Of a stretch of 64,000 nucleotides of DNA, positions 3,963 to 26,377 are shown one piece after another (the stretch's first letter is position 1; each line of letters opens with the position of its first letter). Source of the stretch: Acipenser ruthenus (taxonomy: Eukaryota); contig NC_081214.1 in the NCBI RefSeq assembly GCF_902713425.1, positions 10,816,641 to 10,880,640 on the forward strand, read 5' to 3'. The position numbers were made by a program, and so were the translations under genes. Under the pieces are notes generated by a model. That model searched no databases, was not told the DNA's origin, and saw only the letters and a list, made by a program, of their open reading frames with translations.

Positions 3963-4028
3963 TCACTGCCCCCCTCCCTCGTTGGTCCTCAAGGCTCCAA
4001 TCACACTCTGGATGTTCTCTTCTGGAAC
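3963..4028 (-). CDS. CASTOR1-like: CASTOR-like terminal coding exon: VPEENIQSVIGALRTNEGGGQ*, stop TGA at 3963-3965; the 3'UTR continues to lower coordinates
   Basis: Matches the human C-terminus VPEDGIGSVIEVLQRRQEGLAS*. Acceptor cttttgttag|GTTCCAGAAGAG. It starts in phase 0, consistent with the preceding exon. Confidence 0.7.
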   Translation of the reverse strand, partial: VPEENIQSVIGALRTNEGGGQ

Positions 4029-4164
4029 CTAACAAAAGAAAAATAAGAACATATTGAGAGGCTTTGGAGTAACAGTCTGCTAACGGCAACAAACCGCATT
4101 CTGAACACCACTGTGCTGTTCCAATGGTTAATCTCACCTCCCTCTGCAAGCAGGTTCATTTAAG

Positions 4165-4385
4165 AACATAAAAGTTTAGAACGAGAGGTCGTTCGGTCCA
4201 TGTAAGCTCATCTGGTTCCTAGAAGCTGATTGACATCAAAACTTTTGTCCAGTTGGGGTCTTAAAGGATCCAAGTTCTTCTGCCTCAACAACAGGACTAG
4301 GTAACCCATTCCATCCCCTCACCACTCTGTAAAGAAGTGTCTCCTTCCTTCTGTCCTAAATCTACCTCTGGTCCTAGTTTCTTTT
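4165..4385 (-). mobile_element. CR1-like 3'-end fragment in reverse orientation, lying in the CASTOR terminal intron/3' region
   Basis: The reverse complement matches the tail consensus (...gagtggtgaggggatggaatgggttacctagtcctgttgttgaggcagaaga...ggatcctttaagaccccaactggacaaaagttttgatgtcaatcagcttctaggaaccagatgagcttacatggaccgaacgacctctcgttc). Confidence 0.7.
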
Positions 4386-6344
4386 TTTGTTGTTTGTTTG
4401 TTTGTTTTCATAAAAATGTAGTTGTCAGCAATTAATTTCACCCCACTTTTCTCCCAGTTTGACATATCCAATTCTATTTTAAGCTCAGCTCACTGCTACC
4501 ACCCCTGTGCTGTCTCCAAAGCGGCGAAGACGAACACACGCTGTCTTCCGAAGCGTGTACCGTCAGCCGACCGCTTTTTTTCACTCTGTCAGAGGACAAT
4601 GTAGCTCTGGGCAGCCTACAGGGGTCGCTGGTGCATGGTGAGCTGAGGACACCTTGGACACATGTATTGCCCAGTTGATTTATGATCCACGACATGTAAT
4701 TTTAAAAGGGTCAGCAATATAACTCTTGACAGTAACAACACGGTTCACAGCAAAGGTAACGTAATGAGTTTTTTGTAACACCTTTAATTTTTAATATGTT
4801 TTGACAACACTTTATAGAACTGGAAGGTGACTATGAAACCGTACGCTTCACAATTACTTTTACAATCACATGACGTGTGATGAGTCTACCTGTTTAGTCG
4901 AATAGAAAGTGACAGTTGACCTCAGTGATCTGTTCCGTGCTACGCATACTGGTGGATGGATACAAGTTTAACAACTATCTAGATATTCTGAATGTATAGA
5001 TCCAGTTGTTTGTCCCAGTTCAACATCCTGTTCCACTGGTCCTTCTCTTGATCTCATTGGCAAGGTTGGAATTTAACCAGCATGGTCACTCCTCCTCCTC
5101 CTCCTCCTCCTCCTCCTCCCCTGCTGTATGACTCAGCCTGATTCTCCTTACTCTAATAAGAGTGAAGGACTGCCCCTGATTATTAACAGTACCCCTCCTC
5201 ACACAAGGCTGCCCCGCTCTGGACTGATTTCAGGAATCAGGAGCTGGAGAGAGTGTCCTCAGGTCACTGCACACCAGCGACCCCTGTGGTCTGACTGGGC
5301 GCCCGCGGGCTTGCCTGTAAGCTGCCCAGGGCTGCGCTATCCTCCGACGCTGTAGCTTTGGGTGGCTGCATGATGAGTCTGCAGTGTGTAAAAAAGCGGG
5401 CGGCTAACGGCACATGCCTCGGAGGACAGCGTGCGTTCGTCTTAGCCCCTCCCGAGTCAGCGCAGGGATGGTAGTAGTGAGCTGAGCTAAATAAAATAAT
5501 TGAAACCTACTAAATTGGGGAGAAAATAACAATAAAATAATAATTGGCGACTACTAAATAAAAATAAAAAAGAATTGCCAAGCTTCATGACCATTTGATA
5601 AGCGATGTGTTTAAAAATGTGAGTGTGTGACATACAGACAGATAGATGAACGGGTAGACAAACAATCCCTATATTCCCAGAATCTGATGTCATCAATAAC
5701 TCATTCTAAATAATATTAATAAGTACTGCCCTGACTCATGAGTAAATCCTTTACCAGCTTTGTAAAAACGGAACTGTGCGATCACATTTCTCCATGCAGA
5801 ATGTTTATGCTGTTCTATGTTGTGAAAATAAATAAATGGTGTTTGTTTTAAAACATATTTTTGGTTGTACCATTAATTTACTAAGAGTATGGCTCTACCT
5901 CTGCTACGCTCCCCTGCCTCCAGAGCCCGCTCCTTCTCCACCCTTGCTCCGCAGTGGTGGAATGACCTTCCTACAGATGTCAGGACTGCCCAGATCCTGA
6001 CCACATTCCGGTGCCTCCTTAAGACTCACCTCTTCAAACAGCACCTGTAGAACTCCTCTGTTTGTATCCTGGGACACTATCACCCTTCATTTAAATGTGC
6101 TTTATTTTCCTCTTATCTGCCCCCTATTTTACTGCATTTAATCCTGTACTTCAGAATACTGTAATCTGCCAAGTGTTTAACCTGTAGTATTTTGTATTTA
6201 ATCATATCCTGATGTAACTATCACTATTATCTGCTGTATTATTGAATTGTGGTTTGTCACACTTGTACTTTGCTTGAACAAAAGTTATTGTATTCCTTGC
6301 TCTTATTGTATTACTTGTATTGTAACACTTAATGCATTTGCTTA

Positions 6345-6386
6345 CGATTGTAAGTCGCCCTGGATAAGGGCGTCTGCTAATAAATA

Positions 6387-6453
<67 letters not shown>

Positions 6454-6470
6454 GCAAGTTTTGTCACAGT
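6345..6470 (+). mobile_element. SINE tail fragment (TGTAAGTCGCCCTGGATAAGGGCGTCTGCTAA block) followed by an expanded (AAT)n microsatellite of ~70 bp
   Basis: Contains gattgtaagtcgccctggataagggcgtctgctaataaataaataataataat... Confidence 0.7.
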
Positions 6471-8675
6471 TGGAAAAGTGGTTCTCCAGATATATGCCAA
6501 CATGTAAGTGTGACGTGCAGACGGACGGATGTTCTGACAGACAGACAGACAGCCCCCTATGTCCCCAGGATATGGTATGATCAATAATTTAGGTTAAATA
6601 ATGTTAATACCAATTTCATGACAATTGCATTAGCGTTTTTTCAGATAGTAGAGAAATCATACCACCTTCACTATATCCCTTTTGCGGGTGGTTTCATCTT
6701 ACCCTGAATGGAAAGGGCTTCAAAAATGGTATATTCTTTTACCTGTGTGTCATTCATGTAATTGGGTTTCCAATTGTCTTTTTATCTGTTTTTCATCAAG
6801 TCATTGCGTTGTGATGCACTGGCTAATTGCTACTGTGTCTTCATAGTAGTACAAGCCAGCCGCATCTAGTGAACACCTACTGTGTATCGCCAGAAATAAA
6901 AGGAAGCTTTATCCTATGTACACAAGACAGCACTAATCTAGCCTGTGTTACTCATTGAATAAATCTACAGTCTAAAAGAAACAGTGTTTGAGTGACTGCA
7001 ATAAGAACCACTCACAATGATTGCAAACATCATGCATAGATAAGGTTCTATAAAAACAAATATTTTCTTTAATAATACATTTCTTATCGGCTAATATCCA
7101 ATTATGTATGTTCTGCATTATTCTATATTATTGTTTCTGCTTACAGTAGATCATCATTTACCAGACTTAACTAGTGGAACATTTCTTTACAAAATCAGTT
7201 TCAGGAGAGACAGAAATGACCGCTGCACTTCTATTACCATTACTGTATACAGTAAAAAATAAACTGTTTGATCGTTTAAGTTTTGGAAGATGATACAGAC
7301 CACACACTTTGACATTTACAGTTGGTGCACAGCTGGATTTTGTGATTCCATTCAGGTGGTCTCCAAATTTAACTATTTCACTGCAACTTTGTTTTAACCC
7401 CTGGAAACATCAATGACTCTGTTTCACATATCCATTTTACTTCATGTTTATAAACCATTCGATCTGAAATGACATTCCTTTTAAATTAAGCCCTGTGAAA
7501 GCTTTGTTTTGTTCATAGAAGTTCTAGTTTTAAAGTGTAATGTTTCAATACAGCAATGGTTTTGGTGCCGCAGTGAGACAGGTCCCTTGAGGTTTTACAC
7601 AAGCAAGCCAACTAGCTGAAATCAATTGTATTATTGATCACCAATTAGATAAAATGTTAATTTAAAAATAGTTTGGAAACAAAGGTTATTATTTTGAACT
7701 TCATGGAATCAATAAACAAATTGTGTTGTAGAAAGACTTAGTACACCCCCTGTTTACAAATCAAACGCAAAATTGGTTCTGAAAAAAAAACTAAATAATT
7801 CCAGGAAATCCTACCTCATATATATTGCCATTATTTCATACGTTTTAGATTTTAATTTATGGAAAAACGCACACATTATGGTAAAGGTGAGTTTGATTTT
7901 TGAACGGTATTTTATTTGAAGCTGTTAGGAAAGAGAATGTTGAAATACTTAAATGAAACTTAATAAATTAATGACAAAATATTTTTAATGTCAAAACATT
8001 GACTGTCACAATAGGGCGTTTGATTTTATAATCACGCATTGCCACTGTGCGAGAGTTTATTAGTAGATGGAAAACATTGGACGCGAGTGTGAACATGAGA
8101 ATGCTTATTGAAAATTTTCCAAAAAAGAATATTGGGTTTTTTGGTAAATTCTTTAGCCCGGTTTTGAAAGTTAACAGCAGCGCCATTCATTAGGTTGTGT
8201 TAGCATTATTACAAAAAAAAAAAAAAGATGAATTATGTGTTTAATAATTCAGATTATGTGCATATCACATGTTTAATCTGTTGTGTATACTGGGCCAAAG
8301 CCGGCTCAGGTCTGTGCTCAAGTGTAAACGGGTGACTCAGATGATAAGAATCTTCTAATCCGATCGACTCCGAGCTGGTTCTGGTTGTAAGTATAAACGC
8401 ACTAACAGAATGGGGAGGGTATGGAATGGGTACCTAGTCATGCTGAATCACTGCAATCCTTTACAACCCGACTTCAATCAGCTACAAGGAACTGGATAAG
8501 TACTGGTGGGATGAAGGGCCTTTTCTTATATTCTTATGATATAAATATTCAGCTGATCCTGTGTTAAAACCTCTTGTTGTAGGTCTGTGTGGGGAAGGCT
8601 GAAAAAGAAAACGCAATATCTGAGGCAGCTGCAACAGGAAGACTCAAACTGGTGGTATTTGGATGTAACACTCAC

Positions 8676-8770
8676 GAGAGCATGGTCGAACTTGAAGGTG
8701 CTGATGTAGTAGGCAGGAATGTCAGCGGCAGCCAGGGATTCAGATATCTGAGCCACGATCCCACACTCAT
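8676..8770 (-). CDS. CASTOR1-like: CASTOR-like coding exon: (D)ECGIVAQISESLAAADIPAYYISTFKFDHAL
   Basis: Matches human DECGIVAQIAGPLAAADISAYYISTFNFDHAL. Acceptor ctctctcag|AT, donor GCTCTC|gtgagtgtt. The six-frame ORF 8526..8852 reads through the donor into intron sequence. Confidence 0.8.
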
Positions 8771-8900
8771 CTGAGAGAGAGACAGAGAGGCAGACAATCA
8801 CACACGATCCCACACTCATCTGAGAGAGAGACAGAGACACACGATCCCACACTCATCTGAGAGACAGGGATAGGCAGACAATCACACACGATCCCACACG
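8750..8900. repeat. Tandem repeat of a ~35-bp unit (ACACGATCCCACACTCATCTGAGAGAGAGACAGAG), ~4 copies, starting in the intron just upstream of the CASTOR exon at 8676-8770 and overlapping that exon's first ~20 bp
   Basis: Direct tandem repetition. Confidence 0.8.
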
Positions 8901-9109
8901 CACCTGAGAGACAATCACAAAACAGACTTTCAATGAAGAATTAGGAGTATAGCGATACAATAGTCAGGATACAATACATATTAAACAGGCTACAATATGA
9001 TATTACAGTACATGTGATGGTCCTCATGGGGTAGTTTTACTGTGATGCATAATAAGATCAAATTATCATTTCATGACTCATTTGTTAATGAAATGAGTTA
9101 GGGAGAGTA

Positions 9110-9270
9110 TGTATTCAACTATAATGTTGTTGAAGCTGACACCCTGGGATCCTTCAAGAAGCTGCTTGATGAGATTCTGGGATCAATAAGCTACTAACAA
9201 CCAAACGAGCAAGATGGGCTGAATGGCCTCCTCTCGTTTGTAAACTTTCTTATGTTCTTATGTTCTTATA
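9110..9270 (+). mobile_element. 5'-truncated CR1-like LINE 3' end (tail fragment)
   Basis: Contains ...gacaccctgggatccttcaagaagctgcttgatgagattctgggatcaataagctactaacaaccaaacgagcaagatgggctgaatggcctcctctcgtttgtaaactttcttatgttcttatg, identical to the 3' ends of the full copies. Confidence 0.85.
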
Positions 9271-9669
9271 AAATAGTCTTATTCTTCATTGAAGAAGCAT
9301 TTGGTGAACTACAGTAAGCTATGTTGTGCTTCTGGTATTTTTTTGGTCCAGCCTATTCCGATAGAATATATCATGGAAAGAAAGGCTTGTGCATCATCAA
9401 TATAAGAGGAATCTTGGCCCATGATTGGATTGATATATGGCATGAGATTTGAAGATTTTTGGGTTGCTGGTCTCTCGTACTGTTTGGATAATTTAAAACC
9501 TGAATGCAGTGGGCAGGCTCATGAGAAAAAACATACGCTGTTACAAAATGACAGCAAGTGTAGCTCACAAAATAATCCCATAACTCCTCTCTGTTGTGCA
9601 CTTCCATTTTTATATAGGTCTCACGTGTCCACTATTGAAAGAAAGAAACGCTACTGTAATTTTAAAATA

Positions 9670-9880
9670 TGATATCTGGTACTACAAACCTCTGTTTGCA
9701 AGCCATGCTTTCAGTTAATGTTGCACTTGCTTGGTCACTCTTGATGGTGAAATTCTACCCTTCAATGGCTTCTTTCCTATCAATAAACAAATCAGCTGTT
9801 TCCCCACCGAGTGGTTTGCTTTCAGCTAGTAACATGGCCCAGAAGACACTGCTGAGGCGACCCAGGAAGTACAATATATT
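9670..9880. repeat. Unclassified interspersed repeat (~210 bp) with a second copy at 26890-27120
   Basis: The two loci share ...tggtactac...gccatgcttt.ag...gtgaaatt.t...ttcagc.agtaacatg.cccaga.gacactgctgagg.ga... Confidence 0.55.
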
Positions 9881-10044
9881 TTACAATGTTTTAAAATGAA
9901 AATAAATGTTAACATTTGTTTTTTTAAAAACATTTGACACCTACATATGGAGTTGATGTTCACTATTTTGTTAGCACCAATTCCATTAAGTATTGGAGAT
10001 TTGTGGGCGAGTTTATAGACATACACAGCCTCGCTCTCACTCAC

Positions 10045-10127
10045 CGAAGCCCAGTGGCTGCCCTCCGATCCTCACCATCTTCCAGAGCTCTCCGGAGGCG
10101 CTGGTGAAGAGCACATTAAGGGGGAAC
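10045..10127 (-). CDS. CASTOR1-like: CASTOR-like coding exon: (R)FPLNVLFTSASGELWKMVRIGGQPLGF(D)
   Basis: Matches human KFPSDLLLTSSSGELWRMVRIGGQPLGFD. Acceptor ctccctcag|G, donor GGCTTCG|gtgagtgag. Phase 2 in, phase 1 out. Confidence 0.8.
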
Positions 10128-10439
10128 CTGAGGGAGACAGCATGCAGTCACGAGATATGAACACACTGCTGCCAGCTATAGAACCAGGATCTACACAGCT
10201 AACTCTGCTGGATCTGAACACCATCCCTGTTAGATTACATACTTAAACCATTTAGAAAGGTTGGGAAGTCAAAATCTGTTCTGATTCTTTCCTGCTTTTT
10301 CAGTATAGGCATATGGGAGATACCCAGACTGAAAAAGCAGGAAAAAACAACCTTAAAACAGAGACAAGAATTGGAAACAAAATAACATAAAAGATATGTC
10401 ACTGAAACTTACCTTAAGTTTAAACTCAGCAAAGGTCAT

Positions 10440-10600
10440 TAATGTCAGCTTATTAATGTCAGAACTTTGTCAATTTGAGTCTTAAAGGATCCCAGGGATT
10501 CGCATTAACAACGTGACTAGGTAACCCATTCCATACCTTCACCACTCTCTGTGTCAAGAGGTGTCTCCAACCAAACAACATGAATGTCACGTGGGTCAGA
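10440..10600 (-). mobile_element. CR1-like 3'-end fragment (reverse)
   Basis: Same tail family: ...ggatcccagggattcgcattaacaacgtgactaggtaacccattccataccttcaccactctctgtgtcaagaggtgtctcc. Confidence 0.65.
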
Positions 10601-10931
10601 GAATAACCCATCTTTCCATTCTACCTTAAAGTCTGGAAACTCCCTGTGACAGAGCAGAGGCTCTGCACACGGCTGTGTGAGTTTGGTGAAGGAAGCTGGA
10701 ACCAAGATGGCCACCCTTGCACAGCAACAGGGCATTGTTTAATTGTTTGATTGTTGGATTAATCGAGTGATTGAAGTTTGAATGGAAAAGTGGCATGAGG
10801 CCAGGTGGTGATTGGATGATGGAATCAATTAAGCCCCTGGCCACATAGTAACAAAGGGAACAAAAGGGAACAAAGGAGTATTTGTTTGGTAAGAGTGTGT
10901 CAGAGATGTGTCAGTGAAGGTATGTTGCCCA

Positions 10932-10932
<1 letters not shown>

Positions 10933-11006
<74 letters not shown>
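10933..11006. repeat. (GA)n microsatellite, ~37 repeats. Others in the window: (CCT)n 5093-5127, (ATT)n 12465-12535 with poly-C 12434-12449, (GA)n 26387-26414, (TAA)n 44644-44702, (ATT)n+poly-A 48816-48882, poly-T 24703-24722, complex (CA/TA)n 62480-62640.
   Basis: Simple-sequence runs visible directly. Several six-frame ORFs (e.g. 6342..6584, 12365..12595, 10886..11113) are artefacts of them. Confidence 0.95.
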
Positions 11007-11010
<4 letters not shown>

Positions 11011-11137
11011 CTGGATAGCCGAAGCTTGGGTGTTATATTTTGTTTGTTTTGAAGAGTTTGTAGGGTTTTTGTTTAAACGTTTAGTTTCTTCCAGTTTTGA
11101 CGTATTTTGTTGAACAAAAGTGCACCAAGGCTCTTAA

Positions 11138-11768
11138 CCCTTAGCGGTCCATTTATTCAGCGCGTCTCAGGCGCGTCAGGTCCAATTTATTTTCACACGC
11201 ACAGTTTATTTTAGATGCGCTGTTTAAAAGTATTTTCTTTCACAGTAAAACAGGTTTAAAAGGCACTGCATATCAACAGGACACTCAGTACTGCATCTCC
11301 AGCCCCGCCCCACCCCTCGTTCGCAGTTTTTTTCGCATACCTCTTGATAGTAGTGCATACTGATAAATCATCACCTGATCACTTGTTTTATCGCCAAACT
11401 CCTCAATAATGCGATCCAAGTCATTATTTTATTACTAGAACATCTAAAAAAAGCTCTGCACATGTCTGTGATGTTCTTTGAGCGCTGGATGCAAAAGCAG
11501 CTATCTTGTTTGTTTATGTCTGTGTTATCTATGTGATGCCGGGGCTATCTGTATTCATGAGATACGTCCCTTTGCTTTTTTTTTCGGCTTCTCTGGGCTC
11601 CTATCGATCTCACTCAGCCATTGAATGATCTTCTCGGCTTTTTCCGGAGAAAAAACGACTAGAGACCTGTTTTTTGCGTCTTTTTGATGATGTTGGACAG
11701 GGTCCAACATTGGACTGGAAAGGGAAAATTGCAGTGTTGGACCAGGTCCGACTTAGAACCGCAAAGGG
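11138..11768. mobile_element. piggyBac-type MITE (631 bp). The TIR is CCCTTAGCGGTCC...GAACCGCAAAGGG. The TTAA target-site duplication is at 11134-11137 and 11769-11772.
   Basis: The termini are 5'-CCC...GGG-3' with ~13-bp inverted repeats, flanked on both sides by TTAA. Subterminal GTCGGACCCAGTCCGAC palindromic repeats are present. A second copy lies at 15592-16252. Confidence 0.75.
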
Positions 11769-12015
11769 TTAAACTGTAGTTCTGTGTTTGGGGTTAGGGT
11801 TAGGGCAAGCCTTTACTGCCCACCACTACGCCACACTCCCCTAGTTCAGAGAGTCACCTACCTAGGAGGCTCTATCAGTCTGGAGTTTACCTTGGAATAG
11901 TATCATGAATACAAAACATAAATAACTCCACTTTGGGAATAGAGTCTACCAGTAGATAGGGAGTTATTTTTTATAACAGGCTGCCCGGTGTCATGTTTCC
12001 CTCCTAATCACCTAC

Positions 12016-12126
12016 CTCTTCTGTGTCTCCTCATCCATCACCAAGGAGATGTAGCCTTCGATCAGAGAGAAGGAGAAGAACCTGATGTACTCCAAATCAT
12101 CACTGGGTGCTGCAGACTCCTTCACC
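12016..12126 (-). CDS. CASTOR1-like: CASTOR-like coding exon: (G)VKESAAPSDDLEYIRFFSFSLIEGYISLVMDEETQK
   Basis: Matches human ITFFAFSLIEGYISIVMDAETQKK. Acceptor gtgtttcag|G, donor CAGAAGAG|gtaggtgatt. Confidence 0.8.
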
Positions 12127-12164
12127 CTGAAACACAGACATACACTCTCTCACACACACACACA

Positions 12165-12350
12165 CAGAACGAGGGGAGGCCACTTGGTCCATCTATGCTT
12201 GGTTCCTAGTAGTTGATTGATCTCAAACCTTTGTCAAGATGGGGTCTTAAAGGATCCCAATGATTCAGCATCAACAACATGATTAGGTCACCCATCCCAT
12301 ACCCTGTGTGAATTAGTGTCTCCAACCCTTTGTACGAAGTCCACTTAATT
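12165..12350 (-). mobile_element. CR1-like 3'-end fragment (reverse)
   Basis: Same tail family: ggaggccacttggtccatctatgcttggttcctagtagttgattgatctcaaacctttgtcaagatggggtcttaaaggatcccaatgattcagcatcaacaacatgattaggtcacccatcccataccctgtgtgaattagtgtctcc. Confidence 0.7.
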
Positions 12351-12466
12351 GCCAGCAGCATCCTGTGGTTCTGGTTTCTATGCTTAAAATATTAGTTCAG
12401 GTTTGTCAACTTTTAGATTTGAAAAGCTTCAATGCCCCCCCCCCCCCCATAGTTCTTTGTTCTATG

Positions 12467-12534
<68 letters not shown>

Positions 12535-12781
12535 GCTTGCTACCAGGAGCAAGTCACTTAACCTCCTTGTGCTCCGTCCTTCGGATGAGACGTAAAAAAA
12601 ATGCTTCCCACGGACGCTTGAGCCTTTTTAGTGAACCAACAGAGGTAAATAAATAAACAACTTAAAGTTGTAGTGATATAGCAACAATGGCATTGCTGTG
12701 GTGCTTTCCTTTTTAATAATTTACTTGGGAATTCAATTATTACCCCGTATCATGCCACAACAATGCTACTATCCCTTAAAT

Positions 12782-15152
12782 CAGGGGTTCCCCCTGAGGC
12801 CCACCTGAGCAGCTGCAATACGCACTGAGGCCCACTAACACTTCCTGAGGAAAATGATTCATTGTGATTATAACATGCTGTGGCAAGGTGGTTTGTAGTG
12901 CACAAGTGTAGAGGTGACACAGTGCTTAGAAAAACCACGGGGTTCAGTCTCAAAATGATAACAACAATAAACACACAATTTAAAACACCTACACAATCAC
13001 CAGTCCAACAGCGAGTGCTCCGGGTGCAGCAGTGTTGTGAATACGTGAAATAGTGCTAACAGTGGTGCAGTGCAGTCCGGGTTTGATGCTGGCTGAATAG
13101 CGACAGCTCCCAGATATTTAGCCATCTACAATGACAACACTTAACACTCATGGTTTCATTTCACTCATGGTCATTCCATAACCATAACAAAGGAACAGAT
13201 CGCTCAGCCACACACCCTGACATACCTTCAGTCACGCCCCCTTTGGTAGCGACTGCAATCACATCTCCTCCAATCCATGACTCGCACATCGCCTACCGCA
13301 GTAAGGCGTTGACTTCTAGTATTGTGGCTTCGCCCCCTTTTTGGATGGCCGACTTCCGACTGACCCTGGAATGAACTGTCAAACCATCCAGTCCGGGGCA
13401 CACTGTTCCTGTTATACAGCCTCACAGATCGGGAGGGAGATTGTTGACTCGGATTCATTCGCTCTCTGTTACATATCCCAACGCTCAGAGTGGAGCCGAA
13501 GGAGACGAAATGCTGATTTTTCTTTTGAAAGCTCTGATTGTGTCTTCTTGTACAAGCAAATGTCCACCATTTCCCTGAAGTGATGAATTTAGTTTGTTGA
13601 CTTCATTAAATGTCAGCCAGGTAAGCCAGACAGGAAAGGAACAGTGAATCCATAAAATGTTCTGCCAGCGGGGAGCCACGTTGCTGCACCAATTCTTTAA
13701 GTTCACCTCAGAGTTCGTACACATGTTATACCACTTTTCCTTTGGAAAGCCATCTTACTTCAGAATGAAGCAAAACGTGCTCATGGCCAGCCCCCATTTC
13801 AGCACATAAAGCACTGAACAGACAAGTGTTGAGAGGATTTGCCTTTACCAAATTAACAATCGTAACAACCGAACCCAGCGCATCATGCAGCTCTGCGTTC
13901 ATTTCTTTCCTTGCCAGTGCCTGTCTATGCAGCATACAGTGGGTAGCAGTAACATTCGGTGTGACTTCTCACACTAGAGAGACACAACTTACCCGTCATA
14001 GCAGCCGCTCCATCGTTACATATCCCAACACATTTCTTCCAGTCCAGTTTGACGTAATGAAATCATTCGAATAACTGAAAGATCTCAGCACCAGTTGTTC
14101 AGGTTGGTAACTCTTGGCAGAATAAAAGTGCTTCTGTTAGTTTGGTTTTGAGCATAGACCTCATGTAAATCACAAGCTGTGCTAAGTTTGCAAAATCGGT
14201 GCTTTCGTCGAGCTGCAATGCAAATGAACCGACATAACAAATCATTTCGATGAGCTGATCTTTCACATGTATGCTCATTTCACTGATGCGCTGGCAAACT
14301 GTGTTATTAGAGAGAGGTATGCTTCCTATTTTTCTTCCAGCTTCTTCGCCTAGGACCTCTCGACACATATCTTGCACGGAAGACAAAATCAAATCCTCTC
14401 CAATAGTGTTTTTTTTACACTTTGCAATTCTCAGTGCAACCAAGTAGGATGCTTTTAAGCACTTTTCTATTTGTGTTGTGGTTTTCTCCAGTACTCGGTT
14501 CATTTTTTTTCCTCACAGAAACTTACAGCAGTTTATTCTGCAATGCACTGTGTTTTTACTTCAGGTAACGCTCAAGTTTTGATGGCTTCAGACACTCATT
14601 CGCTAATGTTTCGCAGCACATAACACACTGAGGCAACAAGTACTCATCCGACCCGGAAAAGAAAAATCCAAGCTTTAAGTAGCTGTCATCATAATTTCTT
14701 CCCACTATTCTTTTTTCTTTTTTTGTCCGGCTCATTTTGTGTACTGGTAGCTGTAGATGGTCCAGGACTTTCATGATCCTCTCCATCAGTGATTCCTTCT
14801 CCTTTTCGTATAACAAATCTATCCATGTCTGCTTAAATTATCACCTGCAGTTTTTTACAGTTGTAAATGGTGTGGACTGTGTGTACATTGCTAGGTTACC
14901 TTGCAGTTGAACGCAACGTACTCGCGAGAATTAAACTTGACATATGGCAGCTTGTTTTTTAAACAGTTTTTTTCTATGGTGTGGTCAACATATACAGCTC
15001 AACCTTACATTTATTTAGCTTTTACTTAGATTACACGAGTCACGTGGAGTTATTTATTTAAGCACTTGTCAATGTACATATAGACTGGAGAATGCAGTTG
15101 CACCGGCGGACCACCAAGGACTGTTTCGCGGCCCACAGTTTGGGAACCCATG
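12782..15152 (-). mobile_element. hAT-superfamily DNA transposon (Charlie/Buster-like, 2371 bp) with degraded transposase remnants and a perfect 8-bp TSD CCTTAAAT (12774-12781 and 15153-15160). The TIRs are CAGGGGTTCCCC... and ...GGGAACCCATG.
   Basis: Minus ORFs give the BED-like/hAT N-terminus (RNYDDSYLKLGFF...PQCVMCCETLANECLKPSKLERYLK, 14556..14816), a middle region (14099..14503), the hAT hallmark LLHSEVRWLSKGKV (13726..13935) and a C-terminal part (13485..13724). The termini begin CAGGGG / end CATGGG. An identical 8-mer flanks both ends. Confidence 0.8.
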
Positions 15153-15342: not shown

Positions 15343-15591
15343 CTGTAAACAAGAACAGAAACAAAACACACAGTCAACCAGCAAGCCAGGAGCAAACACA
15401 TCCCACACAAAATTAGAGGCATCACTGTCAGATCAACCAGGACCTATGTGCACTATGTATGTGCACTATGGGCAGCAGTGTGGAGTAGGGGTTAGGGCTC
15501 TTTGTGGGCTTTATTCCAGGGGGCATCTGTCTAGGACATTTGCAGCGGTGTGGGCTACTCCCCATACCTTTACTAGGTTCTACAGACTTAA

Positions 15592-16252: not shown

Positions 16253-16873
16253 TTAATGTTGGGGGTCCCTGGTCAACCTTTGCAACACAGGCATAGGTGA
16301 ACTTCTCCCTCAACTTGTTATCCCTAGCTACTTGTTACTGGGGTTCCGTATGGTAACGCACAAGGCAGCCTCTCGGCGTAGCCTTGCGACAGCTCTGGTA
16401 CACTTACTCATGCGGTAATGGTTACATTTCGTACTTGAACGGGAATGTTAGGTTATTATCATAAACCTCGTCCCCTGAAATAGAAAAGTAACAATTAACC
16501 TTCATGGTCGGTGCATCCATCATTGCAGCAGGCTTGAAAGAAAAATGACATTGAAGTCTGTGACTGCAATGTTTTTTATGTCCTCTTGGTGGGCCATGAC
16601 TGCATCACAGGCTTGTCGAGCAGCTTTGAGATATCTCATTCAAGTTTTGGGTCTTTAGGAGGTAAATACCCATGTGGTAATGGTTACATTGCTATTTCAG
16701 CGAACCAGGGTTATGATAATAACCTAACGTTTGATCACAAATGAGTGAAATGTAACAGGTTTTTATTATAACTAATATCTTAAACTTAAAGGAAATGACT
16801 GAAAATGTGAGTATCACAGCCCTTGTTGTATAGTATTTGCAGTGGAGCTGTGCAGAAATTGAAAGGGACATAC

Positions 16874-17006: not shown

Positions 17007-17099
17007 CTGCACACAGACAGAACATCATCATCATCGCTGGGCATTGTCCAGAAACACTCAAGCAAAACAATATCATTGAATAAACAAAGAAGAACTAGG

Positions 17100-17345: not shown

Positions 17346-18159
17346 TTAGTAAAACACTCTCATTACAAATCTGTAACTCGAGAGTAACACAGATTTGATG
17401 GATTCTACATTACCCTGCTGTGCTCTGAGCTTTGCTTTCTGTAGTGGTTAATCTGCTGTTATTGTCTATAGGCATGATCCAGCAATGTCAGTAGTAGAGC
17501 TGCATTACACGCTGAAGCGAATTCCAACCCAGTATTAATGTCTGATCCAAGGCTAATCCTGGTTATGTAAAAGCATTAAGATTATTTTTAGCTCCAAATT
17601 GATCAAAAGAGAGAGTCACATTTTTGGTATCAGAGCATGACATTAACAGCATGACTCTAACCCAAATGAAAATTGAATTTTTGTATCTTCAGAAGGTATG
17701 GTTTACATTGACCTCAACAGGACCCATTGGGTGCAAATTCATCTAGTCTATGTTGATGGAATTATGAGACGTTTCCATCTGCACCATGAAACCAGTTTGT
17801 AAAACTCAATCTCGTTCCAATATCAAACTGGGGCCAGTCTGCAACCGGACATCCCACAACAGTCAAAGATAACCTATATGTATCTTTTTTTGTATAGTTA
17901 CTATTTTTTATAATTTCCCAACTTCTAATATTTGCCTGGAGATGCAATATATTCACAGCCTTCATATTTTTTTCTGCAGTGAGAGATTTAAACCCTTCCT
18001 CTCACATCGTTTGCATTGGACCAATTTAGCATTAGGAAGTTTTTAAATATCCAAATTTTGATGTCAGCAAGACAGGTATTCAAAATATTAGCAGCAGATC
18101 CATCACCCGGCTTGAGGGACAGGTAAAGCTGAGTATCCAGCAGTGTCAGTCCCTCTGTG

Positions 18160-19200
18160 GCTCCCATAGTCCGGGAAAACACATGCAGACTGTGGCAGGG
18201 ACACTATGAGGTGACAGAAGCAGCAGGTCCAGTGAATTATAAAATACGGCAGCTGGATCGCAGAAAAAAGGAGCAAATATATCACATTAATCTCTTAAAA
18301 CCTTGGAGGGACAGCGAACCAGTTTTAATCACCGGTAGGGAAACAAGTCAGAGCGAAAGTGTGAAAGTGGCCCTAATTTAGGAGAGGAACAGTGTAGAAC
18401 AAAGCTGGGAGTTATAGAGGAGTCTAACAGCAAGTGGACTAGTCTTATAGTGCTAGTGCCAAAACCAGATGGGACACAGCATTTCTTTAACAATTGTAGG
18501 AAATTAAACAAAGTGTCCAAGTTTGACGCCTACCCTATGCTCCGGGTAGATGAACTATAAGAAAAGTTAGGCAAAGCCAGATTTGTGTCCACACTAGGTC
18601 TAACTAAAGGTTACTGGCAGATACCGTTGACGGACATGGCAAAGGAGAAAACAATATTTGTCAATCCTGAAGGTTTATTCCAGTATATGGTGAAGCCCTT
18701 CGGTTTGCATGGTGCCCCTGCAACCTTTCAGAGGTTAATAGACACAATACGCATCAAGCTTATTCGGATGACATTGTGGTATACAGTGAAGACTGGGAAT
18801 CACACCTGGGTAAAGTCAAGGCTGTTTCATACAGCCAGGAAAGCAGATCTTACTGCCAACACAGAAAAATGTCATGTAGGAATGAATGAGGCATGTAGTA
18901 GGGGGTGGGTTGATTAAACCTCAGTGCATTTAAGTCAAGGTTATAAAAAATTGGCCCAAATCTGTAAACAAAAAACAGGTGCGGGTATTTTTGGGTATTC
19001 ACTCTTATTACGGACCATGCTCCTCTGAAATGGATAAGGGTGAATAAAGAAAGAAATGCTAGAGTCACCAGATGTCTTTACAGCCATACCGCTTTACCAT
19101 AGAACACAGAGCTGGGGCAAAACATGGTAATGCGGATGGGCTGTCCAGGGTCCACTATCTCTCAGCTGAGTCCACTCTAACCCAGGGGTTTGAGCTCAGG
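18160..19200 (+). mobile_element. Ty3/gypsy-type LTR-retrotransposon pol fragment (RT core plus a downstream integrase-like piece), frameshifted
   Basis: 18480-18760 translates as F.NCRKLNKVSKFDAYPMLRVDEL...TLGLTKGYWQIPL...MVKPFGLHGAPATFQRL (RT motifs). 19080-19150 gives ...GAKHGNADGLSR. Confidence 0.7.
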
Positions 19201-19202
19201 GG

Positions 19203-22010
19203 ATGGATATGTGGTTTGGTAACAGAGGGAAATATGTCAGTCTAGCATTTAAAAGGGACCAAGAACAAAGTACACAGAAAGAGCACTTGCAACTACAAGC
19301 GCAAGTCAAAAAGGAAGTTAGAAAGGCCAAGAGAGAGATAGAAATGAACATTGCCAAGGGGGCTAAAACCAATTCCAAAAACTTTTTCCAATATTATAAC
19401 AGCAAAACAACATTCAAGGAGGAAGTAAAATGTGTAAGAGATACAACATCATACATGAAGAGAATACAACATCATACATGAAGAGAAAAAAATTGCAAGT
19501 ATATTAAATGATTACTTTTCACAAGTTTTTACAAAGGAGGATTGTAATTGTTCCCATTTAGAAGTGGAAGAACTGCAGTAGCAGCGGACTGACCACTAGA
19601 TGTCATCAGGATCAGCAATCAGAGTGGTAGCAAAACACCTGAGTTTAACACCACGGCAGTCATTTTGACGAAGTTTTCACTTTTAAAATTGTAATTACTC
19701 TGCGTGTTTGAAAGGTACGCGGTTGTCCATTCTTGACTTTTCCTAAGTCTATGTATTAGATACCCTGATGGGTATCTAATACACAGGGCAGCAGTGTGGA
19801 GTAGTGGTTAGGGCTCTGGACTCTTGACCAGAAGGTTGTGGGTTCAATCCCCAGTGGGGGACACTGCTGTTGTACCCTTGAGCAAGGTACTTTGCCTAAA
19901 TTGCTCCAGTAAAAACCCAACTGTATAAATGGGTAATTGTATGTAAAAATAATTTGATATCTGTATAATGTGAAATAATGTATAATGTGATATGTTGTAA
20001 CAATTGTAAGTCGCCCTGGATAAGGACGTCTGCTAAGAAATAAATAATAATAATAATAATTTGAAAGGCAGGATAGCAAAAGAAAAACAACAAAAAAAAC
20101 CTTAAAATCCCCTCCACCTAGAACCGCCAAAACTGTCACTTTGACTGCCTTTTACAATACATGTTTTTATTTTGAATATAATCTACAATAGTTATATAAT
20201 ATTTTATTTTTACATACAAGCCTGTTGTTATTTCTACTGGACCCGGCAACCATCAATTCCTTTGTTTTGTACAAGGAATGCCCCATGGAAAATTTAAGTA
20301 GGAGAGATTTCATCTTGAAGCTAGCCACAGCGCTTCGGCTGAAACATTTCGATCAGAAAACAGCAGCTCAACCAGATTCTGTGCTGCACTGCGTGACACA
20401 CATGCAAAAGAAAACATATGTTACTTTTGTTTAAAATTAAAAACTACTTTCATTTTTACAGTTTTTTATGTACATATACAAAACTGTTAAAGGCAGAAGT
20501 GTTAAAGGGACTAGGAGCTCTTAAAATAAACAAATCCCCTGGACCAGATGAGATCCTCCCAATAGTACTCAAAGAAATAAAATAAGTTATTTACAAACCG
20601 CTAACCAAGATCATGCAACAGTCTCTTGAGACAGAGGTTGTACCGACAGACTGGAGAATTGCAAACGTAATACCGATCCACAAAAAGGGAGACAAAGCCG
20701 ACCAGGTAAGTACAGACCAATAAGCCTGACTTCTATTATATGTAAACTTATGGAAACTATAATAAGATCCAAAATGGAAAATTACCTATATGGTAACAGT
20801 ACTTGGGAGACAGTCAGCACGGTTTTAGGAAAGGGAGACCGTGTCTAACTAATCTGCTTGATTTTTTGGATGATGCAACATCGACAATGGATAATTGCAA
20901 AGCATATGACATGGTTTATTTAGATTTCCAGAAAGCTTTTGACAAAGTCCTGCATAAAAAATTAATTCTCAAACTGAACGCAGTAGGGATTCAAGGAAAT
21001 GCATGCACAGGGAGTGGTTAACATGTATAAAACAGAAAGTACTGATTAGAGGAGAAACCTCAAAATGGAGCGAGGTAACCAGTGGTGTACCACAGGGATC
21101 AGTATTAGGTCCTCTGCTATTCCTAATCTACATTAATGATTTAGATTCTGGTATAGTAAGCAAACTTGTTAAATTTGCAGATGACATAAAAATAGGAGGA
21201 GTGGCAAACACTGTTACAGCAGCAAAGGTCATTCAAAATGATCTAGACAGCATTCAGAACTGGGCAGACACATGGCAAATGAAATTTAAGAGAAAAGTGT
21301 AAGGTACTGCACACAGGCAATAAATATGTGCATTATAAATATCATATGGGAGATACTGAAATTGGAGAAGGAATCTATGAAAAAAAGGAGTTTATGTTGA
21401 CTCAGAAATGTCTTCATGTCTTCATGTAGACAATGTGGGGAAGCTATAAAAAAGGCCAACAAGATGCTTGGATATATTGTGAAAAGTGTTGAATTTAAAT
21501 CAAGGGAAGTAATGTTAAAACTTTACAATGCATTAGTAAGACCTCATCTAGAATATTGTGTTCAGTTCTGGTCACCTCGTTACAAAAAGGATATTGCTGC
21601 TCTAGAAAGGGTGCAAAGAAGAGCAACCAGAATTATCCCTGGTTTAAAATGCATGTTGTATGCAGACAGGCTAAAAGAATTGAATCTATTCAGTCTTGAA
21701 CAAAGAAGACTACGCGGCGATCTGATTCAAACATTCAAAATCCTAAAAGGTATTGACAATATCAACCCAGGGGACTTGGGGTCACAAATGGAGATTAGAT
21801 AAAGGGGCATTCCGAAAAGAAAATAGGAGGCACTTTTTTACACAGAGATATGAGGGTCTGGAACCAACTCCCCAGTAATGTTGTGGAAGCCGACACCCTG
21901 GGATCCTTCAAGAAGCTACTTGATGAGATTCTGGGATCAATAAGCTACTAACAACCAAACGAGCAAGATGGGCCGAATGGCCTCTTCTCGTTTGTAAATT
22001 TTCTTATGTT
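19203..22010 (+). mobile_element. Fragmented CR1-like LINE copy. A piece at 19203-19560 and the RT/3' part at 20497-22010 are split by ~940 bp of inserted sequence that includes a tRNA-derived SINE.
   Basis: 19203-19560 aligns to the region ...RAFKRDQKQSTQKE...FFQYYNSK of the intact copy. 20497-22010 aligns to the RT (SPGPDEILPIVLKE ... ADDIKIGGV ... LKLYNALVRPHLEYCVQFWSPRYKKD) and the CR1 tail. Several frameshifts are present. Confidence 0.8.
19785..20065 (+). mobile_element. tRNA-derived SINE. It has a tRNA-like head with A and B boxes, a body, a conserved tail TGTAAGTCGCCCTGGATAAGGACGTCTGCTAA (HpaI/Deu-type) and an (AATAAT)n 3' end. It is inserted inside a CR1 fragment.
   Basis: The head reads gggcagcagtgtggagtagtggttagggctctggactcttgaccagaaggttgtgggttcaatcccc (TGGAGTAGTGG / GGTTCAATCCC boxes). 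The tail block is shared with salmonid HpaI-type SINEs. Confidence 0.8.
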
Positions 22011-22376
22011 TACCCCTGTTTCCACACTAGTTTCTTTTGAAATGTGTATTTTATTATAGATTCATATTTTGAAGTAGTGCTTTATATGTGGTAAGTTAGA
22101 AAATAAACCCTTTTATGTTTAATTGTTCATTTAAATACAGCGTTTCGGCTGTGCATATGTTTGATATGATGTGTTTGAATAAAACTTTTGAGTTGTAGCC
22201 GATAGTTTCATTTTAATACTGATGTTGTTTAGAATGTAACCGTCATAATGACTGCCAGCGGTGGTTTTAGGTATGAGTATAACCACAGTGGTTCCAGTGT
22301 TAATGAGGTAATTGGATCATTTGAAATGGACTGTTATTCAATTAAGCACTAACCATAAAAAAACATTTTGGGTGTG

Positions 22377-25300
22377 TGTCACAAAGACGGCCGGAGTGGG
22401 TGGCGTCAGACCAGAAGCAGGAAGTAAAGACAGAGATTTGTGGTTTGGTGAAGCTGAGCGAATGCTTTCGCTCAGCATTTAATAACAGAACAGAAAATAA
22501 AAGGTTTGAAACACAAAAAACACTGGACACGGCACTTGCGCCAAAATAAATAGACAAACAAAACGGACTAGACAGTGCACAGACAGACGAACAAAACACG
22601 GTGAGCAGATTTAACTTACTTTTACAATTACCTCCGTCTCCAAACCCGTTGTCCACTCACCGAACACCTAACCCCGACTGAAAGAAACGTGCATCTATAT
22701 ATACTGTTGTGCTGGGATTCAATTACTAATTAATTATTCACTTGAATCCCAGCACATTAATTAATTCTGTGCAACCCCGTGCTTACATATTACATTTAAC
22801 CAGCACGTGAAGTGATTTGTGCTCTCCTTGTGCCTAAATACAAATCTACACTTTTTAAATACACGTGAAACACAGACCCGTTTATATCCAGACCTCCCCC
22901 ACGACCTCCGGCAGTGAAACTGCTGCAGTGGGAGCAGGTCTCCGGACCTCCCCCACGACCTCCGGCAGCGAAACTGCTGCAGTGGGAGCAGGTCTCTGGA
23001 CCTCCCCCACGATCTCCAGCAGCGAAACTGCTGCTGGGGTTGGTGGTCTCCAGACCTCCTCCCCCTTCTTCGTGGCCGACAGCTCCCCTTTCTGGGGCTC
23101 CGGCCACCGTACTCCCTGTGGTGGAGGTACGGGAAGCAGAGACAGCTCCTGCTGTTCTGCTTCTGGCAGTGGCAGAGGCAGAGGCAGCTCCTGCTCCTCT
23201 GCTCCTGGAAGTGGCAGAGGCAGCTCCTGCTCCTCTGCTCCTGCCGGTGTAGGTGGCGGAGGCAGAGGCAGCTCCGGCTGCTCTGCTCCTGGAAGTGGCA
23301 GAGGCAGCTCCTGCTCCTCTGCTCCTGGAAGTGGCAGAGGCAGCTCCTGTTCCTCTGCTCCTGCCGGTGTAGGTGGCGGAGGCAGAGGCAGCTCCGGCTG
23401 CTCTGCTCCTGCCGGTGAAGGTGGGAGCAGCGTGTAGTCTCCTGCCGATGGAGGTGGGAGCAGCGTGTAGTCTCCCCCTTTTCCAGGGGACTGGTGCTGC
23501 TCTGCCTCTCTTGCAGGGAACTGGTGCGGCTCCGCTCCTATTGCAGGGGACTGGTGCGGCTCTGCCTCTGAAGGGAAAACCAGCAGGCATTCTTCCTCTG
23601 CTGGTTGTGCTGGGGAAACCAGCAGGCATTCTTCCTCTGCTGGTTGTGCTGGGGAAACCAGCAGGCATTCTTCCTCTGCTGGTTGGGCTGGGGAAACCAG
23701 CAGGCATTCTTCCTCTGCTGGTTGGGCTGGGGAAACCAGCAGGCATTCTTCCTCTGCTGGTTGTGCTGGGGAAACCAGCAGGCATTCTTGCTCTGCTGGT
23801 GAAGGTGGGAACAGCTGCCTCTCAGGCTTCGGATTCCCGCGGTCCTCTCGTCTGGGCGCTGGACGCTCGCGGCCCCCCTGTCTGGGCGCTGGACGCTCGC
23901 GGTCCCCCCGTCTGGGTGCTAGTTCCTCCTCTTCATACTGGGTGGGGCATATGGCTAATGTGTGCCCATAAGCCCCACAGCCAGGGCATAACTCTGCCGC
24001 GAGGTTCTTTAAAAAAACCTCCCAGCCATCATCCCCGACCTCCTCCCTTTTGGGCTGTGGACGCCCGACTCCTCCCTTTTGGGCTGTGGGCGTTCGGGCT
24101 CCTCCCACTCAGGCGTAGGAAGTTTGGGCTCCTCCAGCTTGGGCTGTGGACGCTCTGGCTCCTCCCGCTTGGGCTGTGGACGCCCCGACTCCTCCCGCTT
24201 GGGCTGTGGACGCCCCGACTCCTCCCGCTTGGGCTGTGGACGTTCGGGCTCCTCCCACTCAGGCGTAGGAAGTTCGGGCTCCTCCCGCTTGGGCTGTGGA
24301 CGCTCAGGCTCCTCCCGCTCAGGTACTGGAGAGGGCAGCGACTGCTCCTCTCCCTCTTGCTCACTGGAAGGCATCCCTCCCATGTCTGCAGCTAGGTACC
24401 CCAGCACCACCATGGTGAGGTCACGAACGGATGCCGGGTTGTGCTGTTGCTCCCAGTCCTCCCATCGTTTCCCATCTCGCATCTGCAGCGCGTGAATAAC
24501 CCAGGGGAGGTCACTGGCGAAGTTCCCCTCGGGGTGCACCAGCCAGTCCCATATTTCCCGGGACGGTGGGGAACCCGGTGGCAGTGGGGTGGCTACTGCC
24601 CCGTTGTGGCTGTCCTCCTCCCAGCCCGGCATGCAGGATGAGGGCTGCAAGCTGCTTCCGCTGCTTCCTGCAGCTCTTTCTTCCCATCCTCGCTTTACTA
24701 TTTTTTTTTTTTTTTTTTTTTTTTGTAATCCAAAACCCCCTCTCCTGGTCTGACGGTTGGAGGCGCTGTTTATCCCACGATGACACCACGTGTCACAAAG
24801 ACGGCCGGAGTGGGTGGCGTCAGACCAGATGCAGGAAATAAACAGACAGAGATTTGTGGTTTGGTGAAGCTGAGCGAATGCTTTCGCTCAGCATTTAATA
24901 ACAGAACAGAAAATAAAAGGTTTGAAACACAAAAAACACTGGACACGGCACTTGCGCCAAAATAAATAGACAAACAAAATGGACTAGACAGTGCACAGAC
25001 AGACGAACAAAACACGGTGAGCAGATTTAACTATTTACTTTACTTTTACAATTACCTCCGTCTCCAAACCCGTTCTCCACTCACCGAACACCTAACCACG
25101 ACTGAAAGAAACGTGCATCTATATATACTGTTGTGCTGGGATTCAATTACTAATTAATTATTCACTTGAATCCCAGCACGTGAATTAATTCTGTGCAACC
25201 CCGTGCTTACATATTACATTTAACCAGCACGTGAAGTGATTTGTGCTCTCCTTGTGCCTAAATACAAATCTACACTTTTTAAATACACGTGAAACACAGA

Positions 25301-25401
25301 CCCGTTTATATCCCGTGTACCAATGACTATACACCAACATTAACACACGCACGCAACATACAACACATAATAAGCACACAGGGGCGGGGCACATTGCCAC
25401 A
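22377..25401 (-). mobile_element. LTR element on the minus strand, likely non-autonomous or internally deleted. The 5' LTR is 24791..25401 (611 bp). The 3' LTR is 22377..22889 (513 bp, lacking ~100 bp at its U3 side). The 1.9 kb internal region is dominated by coding minisatellites and encodes a CCHC zinc-knuckle protein. It is flanked by a 5-bp TSD, GTGTG, at 22372-22376 and 25402-25406.
   Basis: The direct repeats are highly similar (with small indels) and have TG...CA termini (TGTGGCAATG......TTTGTGACA). A PBS-like TGGTGTCATCGTGGGA lies 2 nt inside the 5' LTR. The minus ORF 22882..24108 contains CPGCGAYGHTLAIC (C-x2-C-x4-H-x4-C). A solo LTR of the same family sits at 54393-55027. Confidence 0.8.
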
Positions 25402-26183
25402 GTGTGTCAGAAAGGAGAGCAAGAGAGAGTGCTGGAGAGTGGAGTTAGAACCTGTGAGTAACAAGAACTGGTGTTTAAGAGACAAGTAAACAGCTTAGCT
25501 ATCCTGTGGCAGACAGGGAAGCAACCTTAAATTGTGTAGGTAGTATCGTCAAGTGATTTTTGTTTGTTTGTTTGCTTTGTGTTGTATAATTTGTGAATAA
25601 AATTGTGTTGGAACTGCAAAACAAAGTCTCGAGAGTTTTGTACCTACACCGCTGTACCCAGCCACGTTCCCACAATATGTAAAACATTTATGTGTGCATG
25701 GAAAAGATTTTGAATAATTTTAGAAATATTAAATGAAACTCTAAGTTCAATAACTACTAGAACTCTTTTTCATTGAAAAGACTTCAAGTTGAAAGTTTGT
25801 CGTTGAATTTAAGTTTCTTTAAGTATTTCTAAATGTAGCACTATTGAATGTTTAATAGTCATGGAAGACTTTTGTAATAAATTAAACTGTAAAAATAACT
25901 ACAGCAGGCCTCTATATTTGGCCTGCATATTTTGTTTCCCATTCCCGAAAACCCTTTCCGAAAATCTGGATTTCTCTGCATTGGGATTTCTCATTATTAT
26001 TCTCATTAACCGGGATTACATTGAAAAGAAAGTGCTGTGATTTGCACAACACAGGATGCAACAAGGGTAAAGTCATGTGTTTCCTGTAAACACTGCAGGG
26101 GGTTCTGTAACCCTTCACGAGTTAAATTCAATTGGAACAGAATAACTGCAGTCACGGTGTGGACTGTGCTGTGCTCAGCTTAC

Positions 26184-26377
26184 CAGGATGAAGTCGGTCT
26201 GGTAGGTGGAAAGCATGAAAACAGAGATGTTGTGATCAGCCAGTGGTGCGATAACTGACTTGGCAATTTTGGTGACTCCGATTGGCTGGGAGCTGGAGGA
26301 ACTCCCACCCCCCGAGACCACGTTCAGTGCAAGCCATGTTGCCTCAGCCACACTCAGAAACTCGGACACAGGCAGCT
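26184..26377 (-). CDS. CASTOR1-like: CASTOR1/GATSL-family (ACT-domain arginine sensor) internal coding exon; encodes (E)LPVSEFLSVAEATWLALNVVSGGGSSSSSQPIGVTKIAKSVIAPLADHNISVFMLSTYQTDFIL
   Basis: Reverse-strand translation matches the human CASTOR1 (GATSL3) region ELPPSEFLQVAEATWLVLNV...AGVTKIARSVIAPLAEHHVSVLMLSTYQTDFILVRE, recalled from memory. The acceptor is tatttcag|AG and the donor CATCCTG|gtaagctg. Exon start phase 1, end phase 0. Confidence 0.85.

Follow-up and report, generated by a model that had tools for sequence, protein, structure and literature searches.

A CASTOR2 gene with transposon-filled introns in Acipenser ruthenus and the extrapolated position of its first two exons

Which member of the CASTOR family lies in a repeat-dense stretch of the Acipenser ruthenus genome, and where is the part of the gene that encodes its N-terminus? 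We analyzed 64,000 nucleotides of contig NC_081214.1 (assembly GCF_902713425.1, positions 10,816,641 to 10,880,640), hereafter the window, in which a first-pass annotation made from the letters alone had described a minus-strand CASTOR1/GATSL-family arginine-sensor gene at 3963-26377, with its N-terminal exons not located. We conclude with very little doubt that this gene is CASTOR2 (GATSL2), the "cytosolic arginine sensor for mTORC1 subunit 2", and that it is an ordinary annotated gene of which the window holds exons 3-9 of nine.

Exons, transcripts and identity of the window gene

We scanned the window by tblastn with a human CASTOR1 sequence that served as a probe only. The probe gave colinear minus-strand matches at 26378-26181, 17006-16857, 15334-15224, 12122-12015, 10129-10040, 8771-8673 and 4058-3972, the first six with E values from 3.6e-21 to 7e-8 and the terminal seventh weaker. 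Reading the flanks and assembling the exons gave the following structure:

26377-26184, minus strand: coding exon 3, 194 nucleotides (nt), completing codon 62 and encoding residues 62-126
17006-16874, minus strand: coding exon 4, 133 nt, matching transcripts L002 and L006 at 100% identity
15342-15219, minus strand: coding exon 5, 124 nt, flanks read, transcript-matched
12126-12016, minus strand: coding exon 6, 111 nt (divisible by three), transcript-matched
10127-10045, minus strand: coding exon 7, 83 nt, transcript-matched
8770-8676, minus strand: coding exon 8, 95 nt, encoding DECGIVAQ...YYISTFKFDHAL and carrying K303 and D305
4028-3963, minus strand: coding part of exon 9, 66 nt, encoding VPEENIQSVIGALRTNEGGGQ, with a TGA stop codon at 3965-3963
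1671-3962, minus strand: 3' untranslated region (UTR) of exon 9, where L002 and L003 align from 4028 to 1671 at 90-95% identity with two indels

Exon 3, bordered by the acceptor tttcAG and the donor GTAAGC, holds the part of ACT1/ACT2 with S113 and the Y120/Q121/D123 patch. All seven acceptors have AG behind a polypyrimidine tract, all donors read GT(A/G)(A/G)G, and the exon phases chain consistently into an open product of 268 amino acids (aa), residues 62-329. The introns between exons 3 and 9 measure 9177, 1531, 3092, 1888, 1274 and 4647 bp. The first-pass annotation was accurate to the base in this respect: it had called seven minus-strand exons with GT-AG borders and consistent phase, ~270 aa colinear with residues ~62-329 and introns of 1.3-9.2 kb (1274-9177 bp as measured), and the ends of its interval are exactly the last base of the stop codon (3963) and the first base of an exon (26377). 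Among teleosts, several "isoform X2" CASTOR2 entries (291-293 aa) have the length expected from skipping of exon 6.

An exact-protein look-up of the best homolog led to a genomic locus, L001, and to several contigs of spliced transcripts, L002-L006, assembled from sturgeon RNA-seq data. On the window these transcripts fall into seven blocks, which join at the assigned junctions, and they run on through the 3' UTR to at least 1671 (at least 2.3 kb), where the transcript contig stops without poly(A); an AATAAA at ~1512 is a possible polyadenylation signal. The spliced coding sequence (CDS) of the window matches L006 in a single 806-nt high-scoring segment pair with 0 gaps and 99.1% identity, and L002, L004 and L005 at 98.8% identity, also with 0 gaps. 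Since these alignments are free of gaps, all six internal junctions are confirmed to the base. Spliced alignment had been proposed as a check on the junctions, and the ungapped match to independent sturgeon transcripts upholds them.

The top database match of the spliced product was a sturgeon "cytosolic arginine sensor for mTORC1 subunit 2" (99% identity, E=2e-167, well outside the range of chance). Among the matches listed, CASTOR2 or GATS-like 2 names ran at ~69-99% identity, those taken as CASTOR2 at 73-99%, and the first CASTOR1 stood at 65%. Pfam reported PF21389 (CASTOR1_ACT-like, E=4.6e-37) over its full profile (1-82) and PF13840 (ACT_7, E=4.9e-37) in two stretches; Castor1_N (PF18700), encoded mainly by exons 1-2 and so predicted to lie beyond the window, was found in cluster relatives of the RefSeq protein with the identical tail. 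In a search of solved structures, human CASTOR2 (9kpb) scored 487.7 bits, gap-free over residues 63-325, and human CASTOR1 (5i2c) 347.7 bits. The family and strand first assigned to the gene are therefore right, and no other ACT-domain family came out on top; the paralogue is CASTOR2 rather than CASTOR1.

Within the species, residues 63-329 show 0 mismatches in 267 positions to A. ruthenus CASTOR2 XP_033907149.1 (P0125). There is no detectable difference between the two, residues 1-61 of that protein being encoded off-window by our extrapolation, and the window gene is almost certainly identical with it; judged by amino-acid identity, the source species is most probably A. ruthenus. Against four further full-length sturgeon sequences from the top cluster, window residues 63-329 show 1-5 differences, and the product is 83.9% identical to a mammalian CASTOR2 representative (P0017).

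Exons 1 and 2 and the second intron

We searched the window for residues 1-61. Besides the overlap of the query with exon 3, tblastn (word size 2, E<=100) gave only chance-level matches in the window, and a six-frame motif scan of the window gave no match, in agreement with the first-pass statement that the N-terminal exons were not located. That annotation had left two places for them, above 26377 within the repeat-dense 26.4-64 kb or outside the window, and comparison with orthologous loci speaks for the second and against the first.

The loci compared came from sturgeons (L001, L007, L008 and L009), the teleost Albula goreensis (L010) and the chimaera Callorhinchus milii (L011). Exons 3-9 of the window match the exon borders in all of them, and the nine-exon layout is found throughout. 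Each of the four sturgeon loci has an exon 1 that covers residues 1-38 and an exon 2 of ~70 nt, and intron 2, which comes next, is very long:

L001, A. oxyrinchus CASTOR2-like: intron 2 of 24.5 kb
L009, A. oxyrinchus second copy: intron 2 of 27.5 kb
L008, Huso huso CASTOR2-like: intron 2 of at least 31.7 kb
L007, Huso huso CASTOR2 (GCA_036884735.1 CM072688.1): intron 2 of 47.6 kb

The whole window is colinear with L007 in megablast blocks of 96-99% identity, with 97-99% through the introns, and window base 64000 corresponds to L007 15906. In L007, exon 2 ends at 13617 and the CDS of exon 1 spans 10001-10113; the two translate to MELHILEH...EEGFKE. Extrapolated from these positions, exon 2 would lie ~2.3 kb and exon 1 ~5.8-5.9 kb beyond position 64000. 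The two exons would encode MELHILEHSLKV...SKTR and CKFFTLTETPEDYTIIVDEEGFK, and the N-terminal peptide expected from them is MELHILEHSLKVASIAKEGIQFFTHGLIKLAFLPSKTRCKFFTLTETPEDYTIIVDEEGFK. Because the colinearity puts exons 1-2 past 64000, the remainder of the window reads as part of a transposon-filled intron 2 of roughly 40 kb in total:

26378-64000, minus strand: 3' part of intron 2, 37.6 kb, with long interspersed nuclear elements (LINEs), remnants of reverse transcriptase (RT) and EEP sequence, a 57-bp satellite and no CASTOR2 exon

Exon 2 would fall off the window edge because a 9.5-kb retroelement block (54249-63704) is inserted relative to L001.

Could a short or divergent N-terminal exon, or an alternative first exon, have been missed inside 26.4-64 kb? 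In favour of this, exon 2 has only ~70 nt, and an A. sinensis model (P0080) has a different N-terminus. However, residues 1-61 are identical among the full-length sturgeon and paddlefish models compared, neither the permissive tblastn search nor the motif scan returned anything, and the whole of 26.4-64 kb has its counterpart in intron 2 of both L007 and L001, where exon 2 lies upstream of the aligned sequence. P0080 itself is flagged UNVERIFIED_CONTAM and looks like a misprediction. We consider a missed exon very improbable and keep to a position of exons 1-2 beyond the window.

The Huso huso CASTOR2-like locus L008 carries exons 1-2 twice, ~28.6 kb apart (2849-3115 / 6546-6617 and 31444-31708 / 35067-35139), which may be either a segmental duplication or an assembly artefact.

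Duplicate copies and the repeats that fill the introns

L007 is the true ortholog of the window gene, colinear with it and built of the same nine exons. It lacks a 3-kb insertion of long terminal repeat (LTR) type (window 22378-25402) and ~3.6 kb at window 56980-60569, and the protein annotated for it (P0002) carries a misprediction at exon 3. L001, L008 and L009 are only ~91-92% identical to the window and to each other, too even to tell ortholog from ohnolog among them; over all sturgeon CASTOR2 copies other than the window/L007 pair, mutual identity is ~90-93%. The A. oxyrinchus pair (92.7%) resemble each other slightly more than they resemble either Huso copy, which might be a sign of lineage-specific rediploidisation, with numbers too noisy for a conclusion. 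The presence of two CASTOR2 copies per sturgeon genome fits the known acipenseriform whole-genome duplication (PMC7269910, PMC10199039).

With two copies per genome, the window gene could be imagined as a decaying or non-functional duplicate from that event, its missing 5' exons and swollen, heavily transposon-invaded introns being marks of pseudogenisation. But the open reading frame (ORF) is uninterrupted, every splice site is canonical, a RefSeq protein matches the product exactly, and there are transcript contigs that differ little from it in sequence. In the colinear ortholog, the 5' exons stand a short way past the point that corresponds to the window edge. The ~84% identity to mammalian CASTOR2 speaks for strong purifying selection. 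We give decay hardly any credence: the window CASTOR2 gene is intact and transcribed.

Its length is a different matter. The gene covers at least 62 kb in the window and ~68 kb by extrapolation, compared with 16 kb in Albula goreensis and 14.5 kb in Callorhinchus milii. The sturgeon gene is about four times longer than these compact orthologs, the result of LINE, LTR and DNA-transposon insertions and of satellites that have built up in its introns. Window 1671-64000 (minus strand) holds most of the gene: exons 3-9, the 3' UTR (at least 2.3 kb) and a 37.6-kb stretch of intron 2. The larger elements that could be delimited are:

22378-25402, no strand assigned: LTR-type insertion in intron 3, with TG...CA termini and a 5-bp GTGTG target-site duplication
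18561-18914, plus strand: Ty3/gypsy-type RT fragment in intron 3 (RVT_1 E=9e-9; best structures Ty3 RT 4ol8 and 7q5b, E ~2e-11)
20958-22010, plus strand: 5'-truncated LINE in intron 3 (RVT_1 E=1e-11), an RT fragment with the 3' tail of full LINEs
29126-32656, plus strand: near-full LINE in intron 2, with GDSL-esterase-type ORF1, EEP endonuclease and RT (527-aa ORF)
49953-53430, plus strand: second near-full LINE of the same family in intron 2, with GDSL-esterase-type ORF1, EEP, RT and the tail repeat

The insertion at 22378-25402 is a recent, non-autonomous LTR-type insertion. Its direct repeats of ~520 bp (22376-22889 and 24790-25313) are ~97% identical when aligned with gaps (92-99% in ungapped sub-blocks), and its site is intact and empty in both Huso L007 and L001. 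A Pfam scan of the interior found no gag/pol and no Pfam domains; the interior consists of GC-rich minisatellites with 30-, 36-, 39- and 54-bp units. Long ORFs at 22.8-24.9 kb on both strands were rejected as artefacts of these minisatellites, having no real Pfam matches.

The two near-full LINEs run antisense to the CASTOR2 gene, and their long ORFs (up to 527 aa), most of them still open, suggest fairly recent activity. The tail of the truncated copy in intron 3 (21856-22010) is of one repeat family with 32483-32656 and 53253-53426, all three matching a single L001 element at 93.5-94.3%; short 3'-tail copies lie at 9122-9264, 21856-22010 and 45612-45763. Further RT/EEP remnants occupy intron 2 at 46.7-47.2 kb and 55.4-62.3 kb. 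The inserted retroelement block at 54249-63704, whose minus strand carries ORFs for RT and EEP (55404-62342), is absent from L001, where 16415-16429 aligns to both flanks, and the window regains colinearity with L001 only at 63705-64000. Because ~3.6 kb of the block (~56980-60569) is also missing from the Huso ortholog, the block is a nested or lineage-specific retroelement insertion.

The first-pass annotation had listed an LTR element, a gypsy fragment, CR1 fragments, a hAT element, two piggyBac miniature inverted-repeat transposable elements (MITEs) and short interspersed nuclear elements (SINEs) in the introns. The LTR element (by its termini, target-site duplication, direct repeats and empty site), the gypsy fragment (by RVT_1 and the Ty3 RT structures) and LINE RT fragments (by RVT_1 at 20958-22010) were recovered. 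The other three were not. For hAT, Pfam gave no family for ORFs at 14102-14837 or for the frame-joined, stop-masked translation of 12.6-15.2 kb; what is left is a resemblance of LQLDESTD and CNDGAAAMTG to motifs of hAT transposases. A terminal-inverted-repeat scan for the piggyBac pattern TTAA-CCY...RGG-TTAA found no pair, and the two elements with terminal inverted repeats, at 16444-16731 and 4479-5491, are without clear piggyBac termini. Rfam at gathering thresholds and a tRNA scan of the whole window gave 0 matches and so no support for tRNA-type SINE heads or intronic non-coding RNAs, and the short dispersed repeats that could be placed are LINE 3' tails.

Two kinds of tandem repeat also stand in the introns. 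A satellite of 57-bp units fills ~1.9 kb of intron 2 (41721-43660, ~34 units, and periods of higher order at 114, 157 and 271), and its position in L001 holds only ~286 bp. Perfect 67-bp microsatellites at 6387-6453, (AAT)22, and 12468-12534, (TAT)22, in introns 8 and 5, are exact reverse complements that bracket exons 6-8 and probably belong to copies of one repeat; any pairing between them in the pre-mRNA would be by A-U only. No second host gene was evident in the window by motif scan and by Pfam on the ORFs, which showed only transposon-derived ORFs outside CASTOR2. L001 carries an RCC1-repeat gene (466 aa) just downstream of its CASTOR2 gene, a neighbour that lies outside the window here, and human RCC1L (WBSCR16) presumably adjoins CASTOR2 at 7q11.23.

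Diagnostic residues and the repeated exon-8 acceptor

Human CASTOR2 has no detectable arginine binding by isothermal titration calorimetry and associates constitutively with GATOR2 (PMC5020642, PMC5187391), so "arginine sensor" is to be read as the name of the family and not as an established property of this paralogue. The residues that discriminate the paralogues are H108/H109/V110 and N302 in CASTOR1 against Q110/N111/I112 and K303 in CASTOR2 (Gai et al., PMC5187391), together with L113 in CASTOR1 against F115 in CASTOR2 (Xia et al., PMC5020642). The window product has H110, N111, I112, F115 and K303. Four of the five are CASTOR2-type, at human CASTOR1 positions 109, 110, 113 and 302, and H110 is CASTOR1-type. 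With human CASTOR1 (GATSL3; PDB 5i2c, 5gt7) the product has the four-ACT fold family in common, at an identity of only ~65%, and it conserves the equivalents of S111, D304 and Y118/Q119/D121. On the sequence comparison, a CASTOR1 (GATSL3) ortholog acting as a true arginine-binding sensor, which colinearity with human CASTOR1 residues 62-329 and the match of H110 to H108 might suggest, is the least probable alternative and effectively refuted by the ~84% identity to mammalian CASTOR2 versus ~65% to CASTOR1, by the bit scores and the ranking of names among the matches listed, and by the CASTOR2-type N111, I112, F115 and K303.

Position 110 is among those proposed to explain the lack of arginine binding in CASTOR2 (PMC5187391). 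Histidine is also found there in Albula and Callorhinchus CASTOR2, and paddlefish and mammalian CASTOR2 have glutamine; because Albula and Callorhinchus carry histidine too, H110 is probably the ancestral state in CASTOR2. The pocket residues S113, L274, G275, F276, E278, C279, I281, V282, T301, F302, F304 and D305 are all conserved in the window product, and to the same degree in human CASTOR2, the protein for which arginine binding was not detected. The patch Y120/Q121/D123, within "STYQTDF", is also kept; its CASTOR1 counterpart, Y118/Q119/D121, is the Mios-binding patch (PMC5187391). Human CASTOR2 (PDB 9kpb) shares its residue numbering, its GATOR2/Mios patch and its pocket residues with the window product, and differs in having Q110 where the sturgeon has H110; the sturgeon introns are much longer and rich in transposons.

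By homology, sturgeon CASTOR2 would be a four-ACT-domain dimer that binds the GATOR2 subunit Mios through Y120/Q121/D123 and so restrains mTORC1. Like human CASTOR2, it would be arginine-insensitive alone and could heterodimerise with arginine-responsive CASTOR1. Three points weigh on the other side of our interpretation. Exons 1-2 were not seen in the source genome, their position being extrapolated from the Huso huso ortholog; position 110 is H rather than the mammalian CASTOR2 Q, which makes arginine insensitivity less than certain; and the function proposed for any fish CASTOR2 comes from homology.

A further feature of the gene concerns the acceptor of exon 8:

8754-8911, minus strand: minisatellite in intron 7 whose 37-49-bp unit includes a pyrimidine tract, CAG and the initial 17 nt of exon 8

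Upstream of the true exon-8 acceptor, three decoy copies (8822, 8859 and 8906) repeat CAG followed by (A/G)TG(A/C)GTGTGGGATCGTG. The number of acceptor-like copies, including the true one, varies among the loci:

Window: 4 copies
L009 (60715-61003): 7 copies
L007 (77202-77623): 10 copies
L001 (54369-55017): 15 copies
L008 (81734-82390): 16 copies
Albula and Callorhinchus: 1 copy each

The minisatellite is specific to sturgeons and paddlefish. The true acceptor is the one used by every transcript contig retrieved. If the window gene were spliced to a decoy, the protein would be truncated and would end in ...DECGIVCDCLPLCLSLR and a stop. The paddlefish RefSeq model XP_041092465.1 (291 aa) ends in ...DECGIVCDCLPVSLR, which looks like a decoy acceptor in use, whether through real alternative splicing or as a gene-prediction artefact. 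We regard it as very unlikely that the minisatellite is a functional alternative-splicing device or, separately, that H110 leaves non-tetrapod CASTOR2 partly arginine-responsive. If decoys were used, the outcome would be either a C-terminally truncated CASTOR2 (...GFDECGIVCDCLPLCLSLR and a stop) without the ACT4 segment that carries D305, or a transcript targeted by nonsense-mediated decay that would tune CASTOR2 dosage after genome duplication.

The window gene is already known as a conserved vertebrate CASTOR2 with a RefSeq annotation, and the main finding is not new. Its value lies mainly in correct annotation, with the paralogue corrected to CASTOR2 and exons 1-2 placed off-window, and in showing that exon calls from raw sequence proved accurate to the base. 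For sturgeon biology, the locus is a clear example of transposon-driven intron expansion, with one oddity of its own, a minisatellite that repeats the splice acceptor of exon 8.

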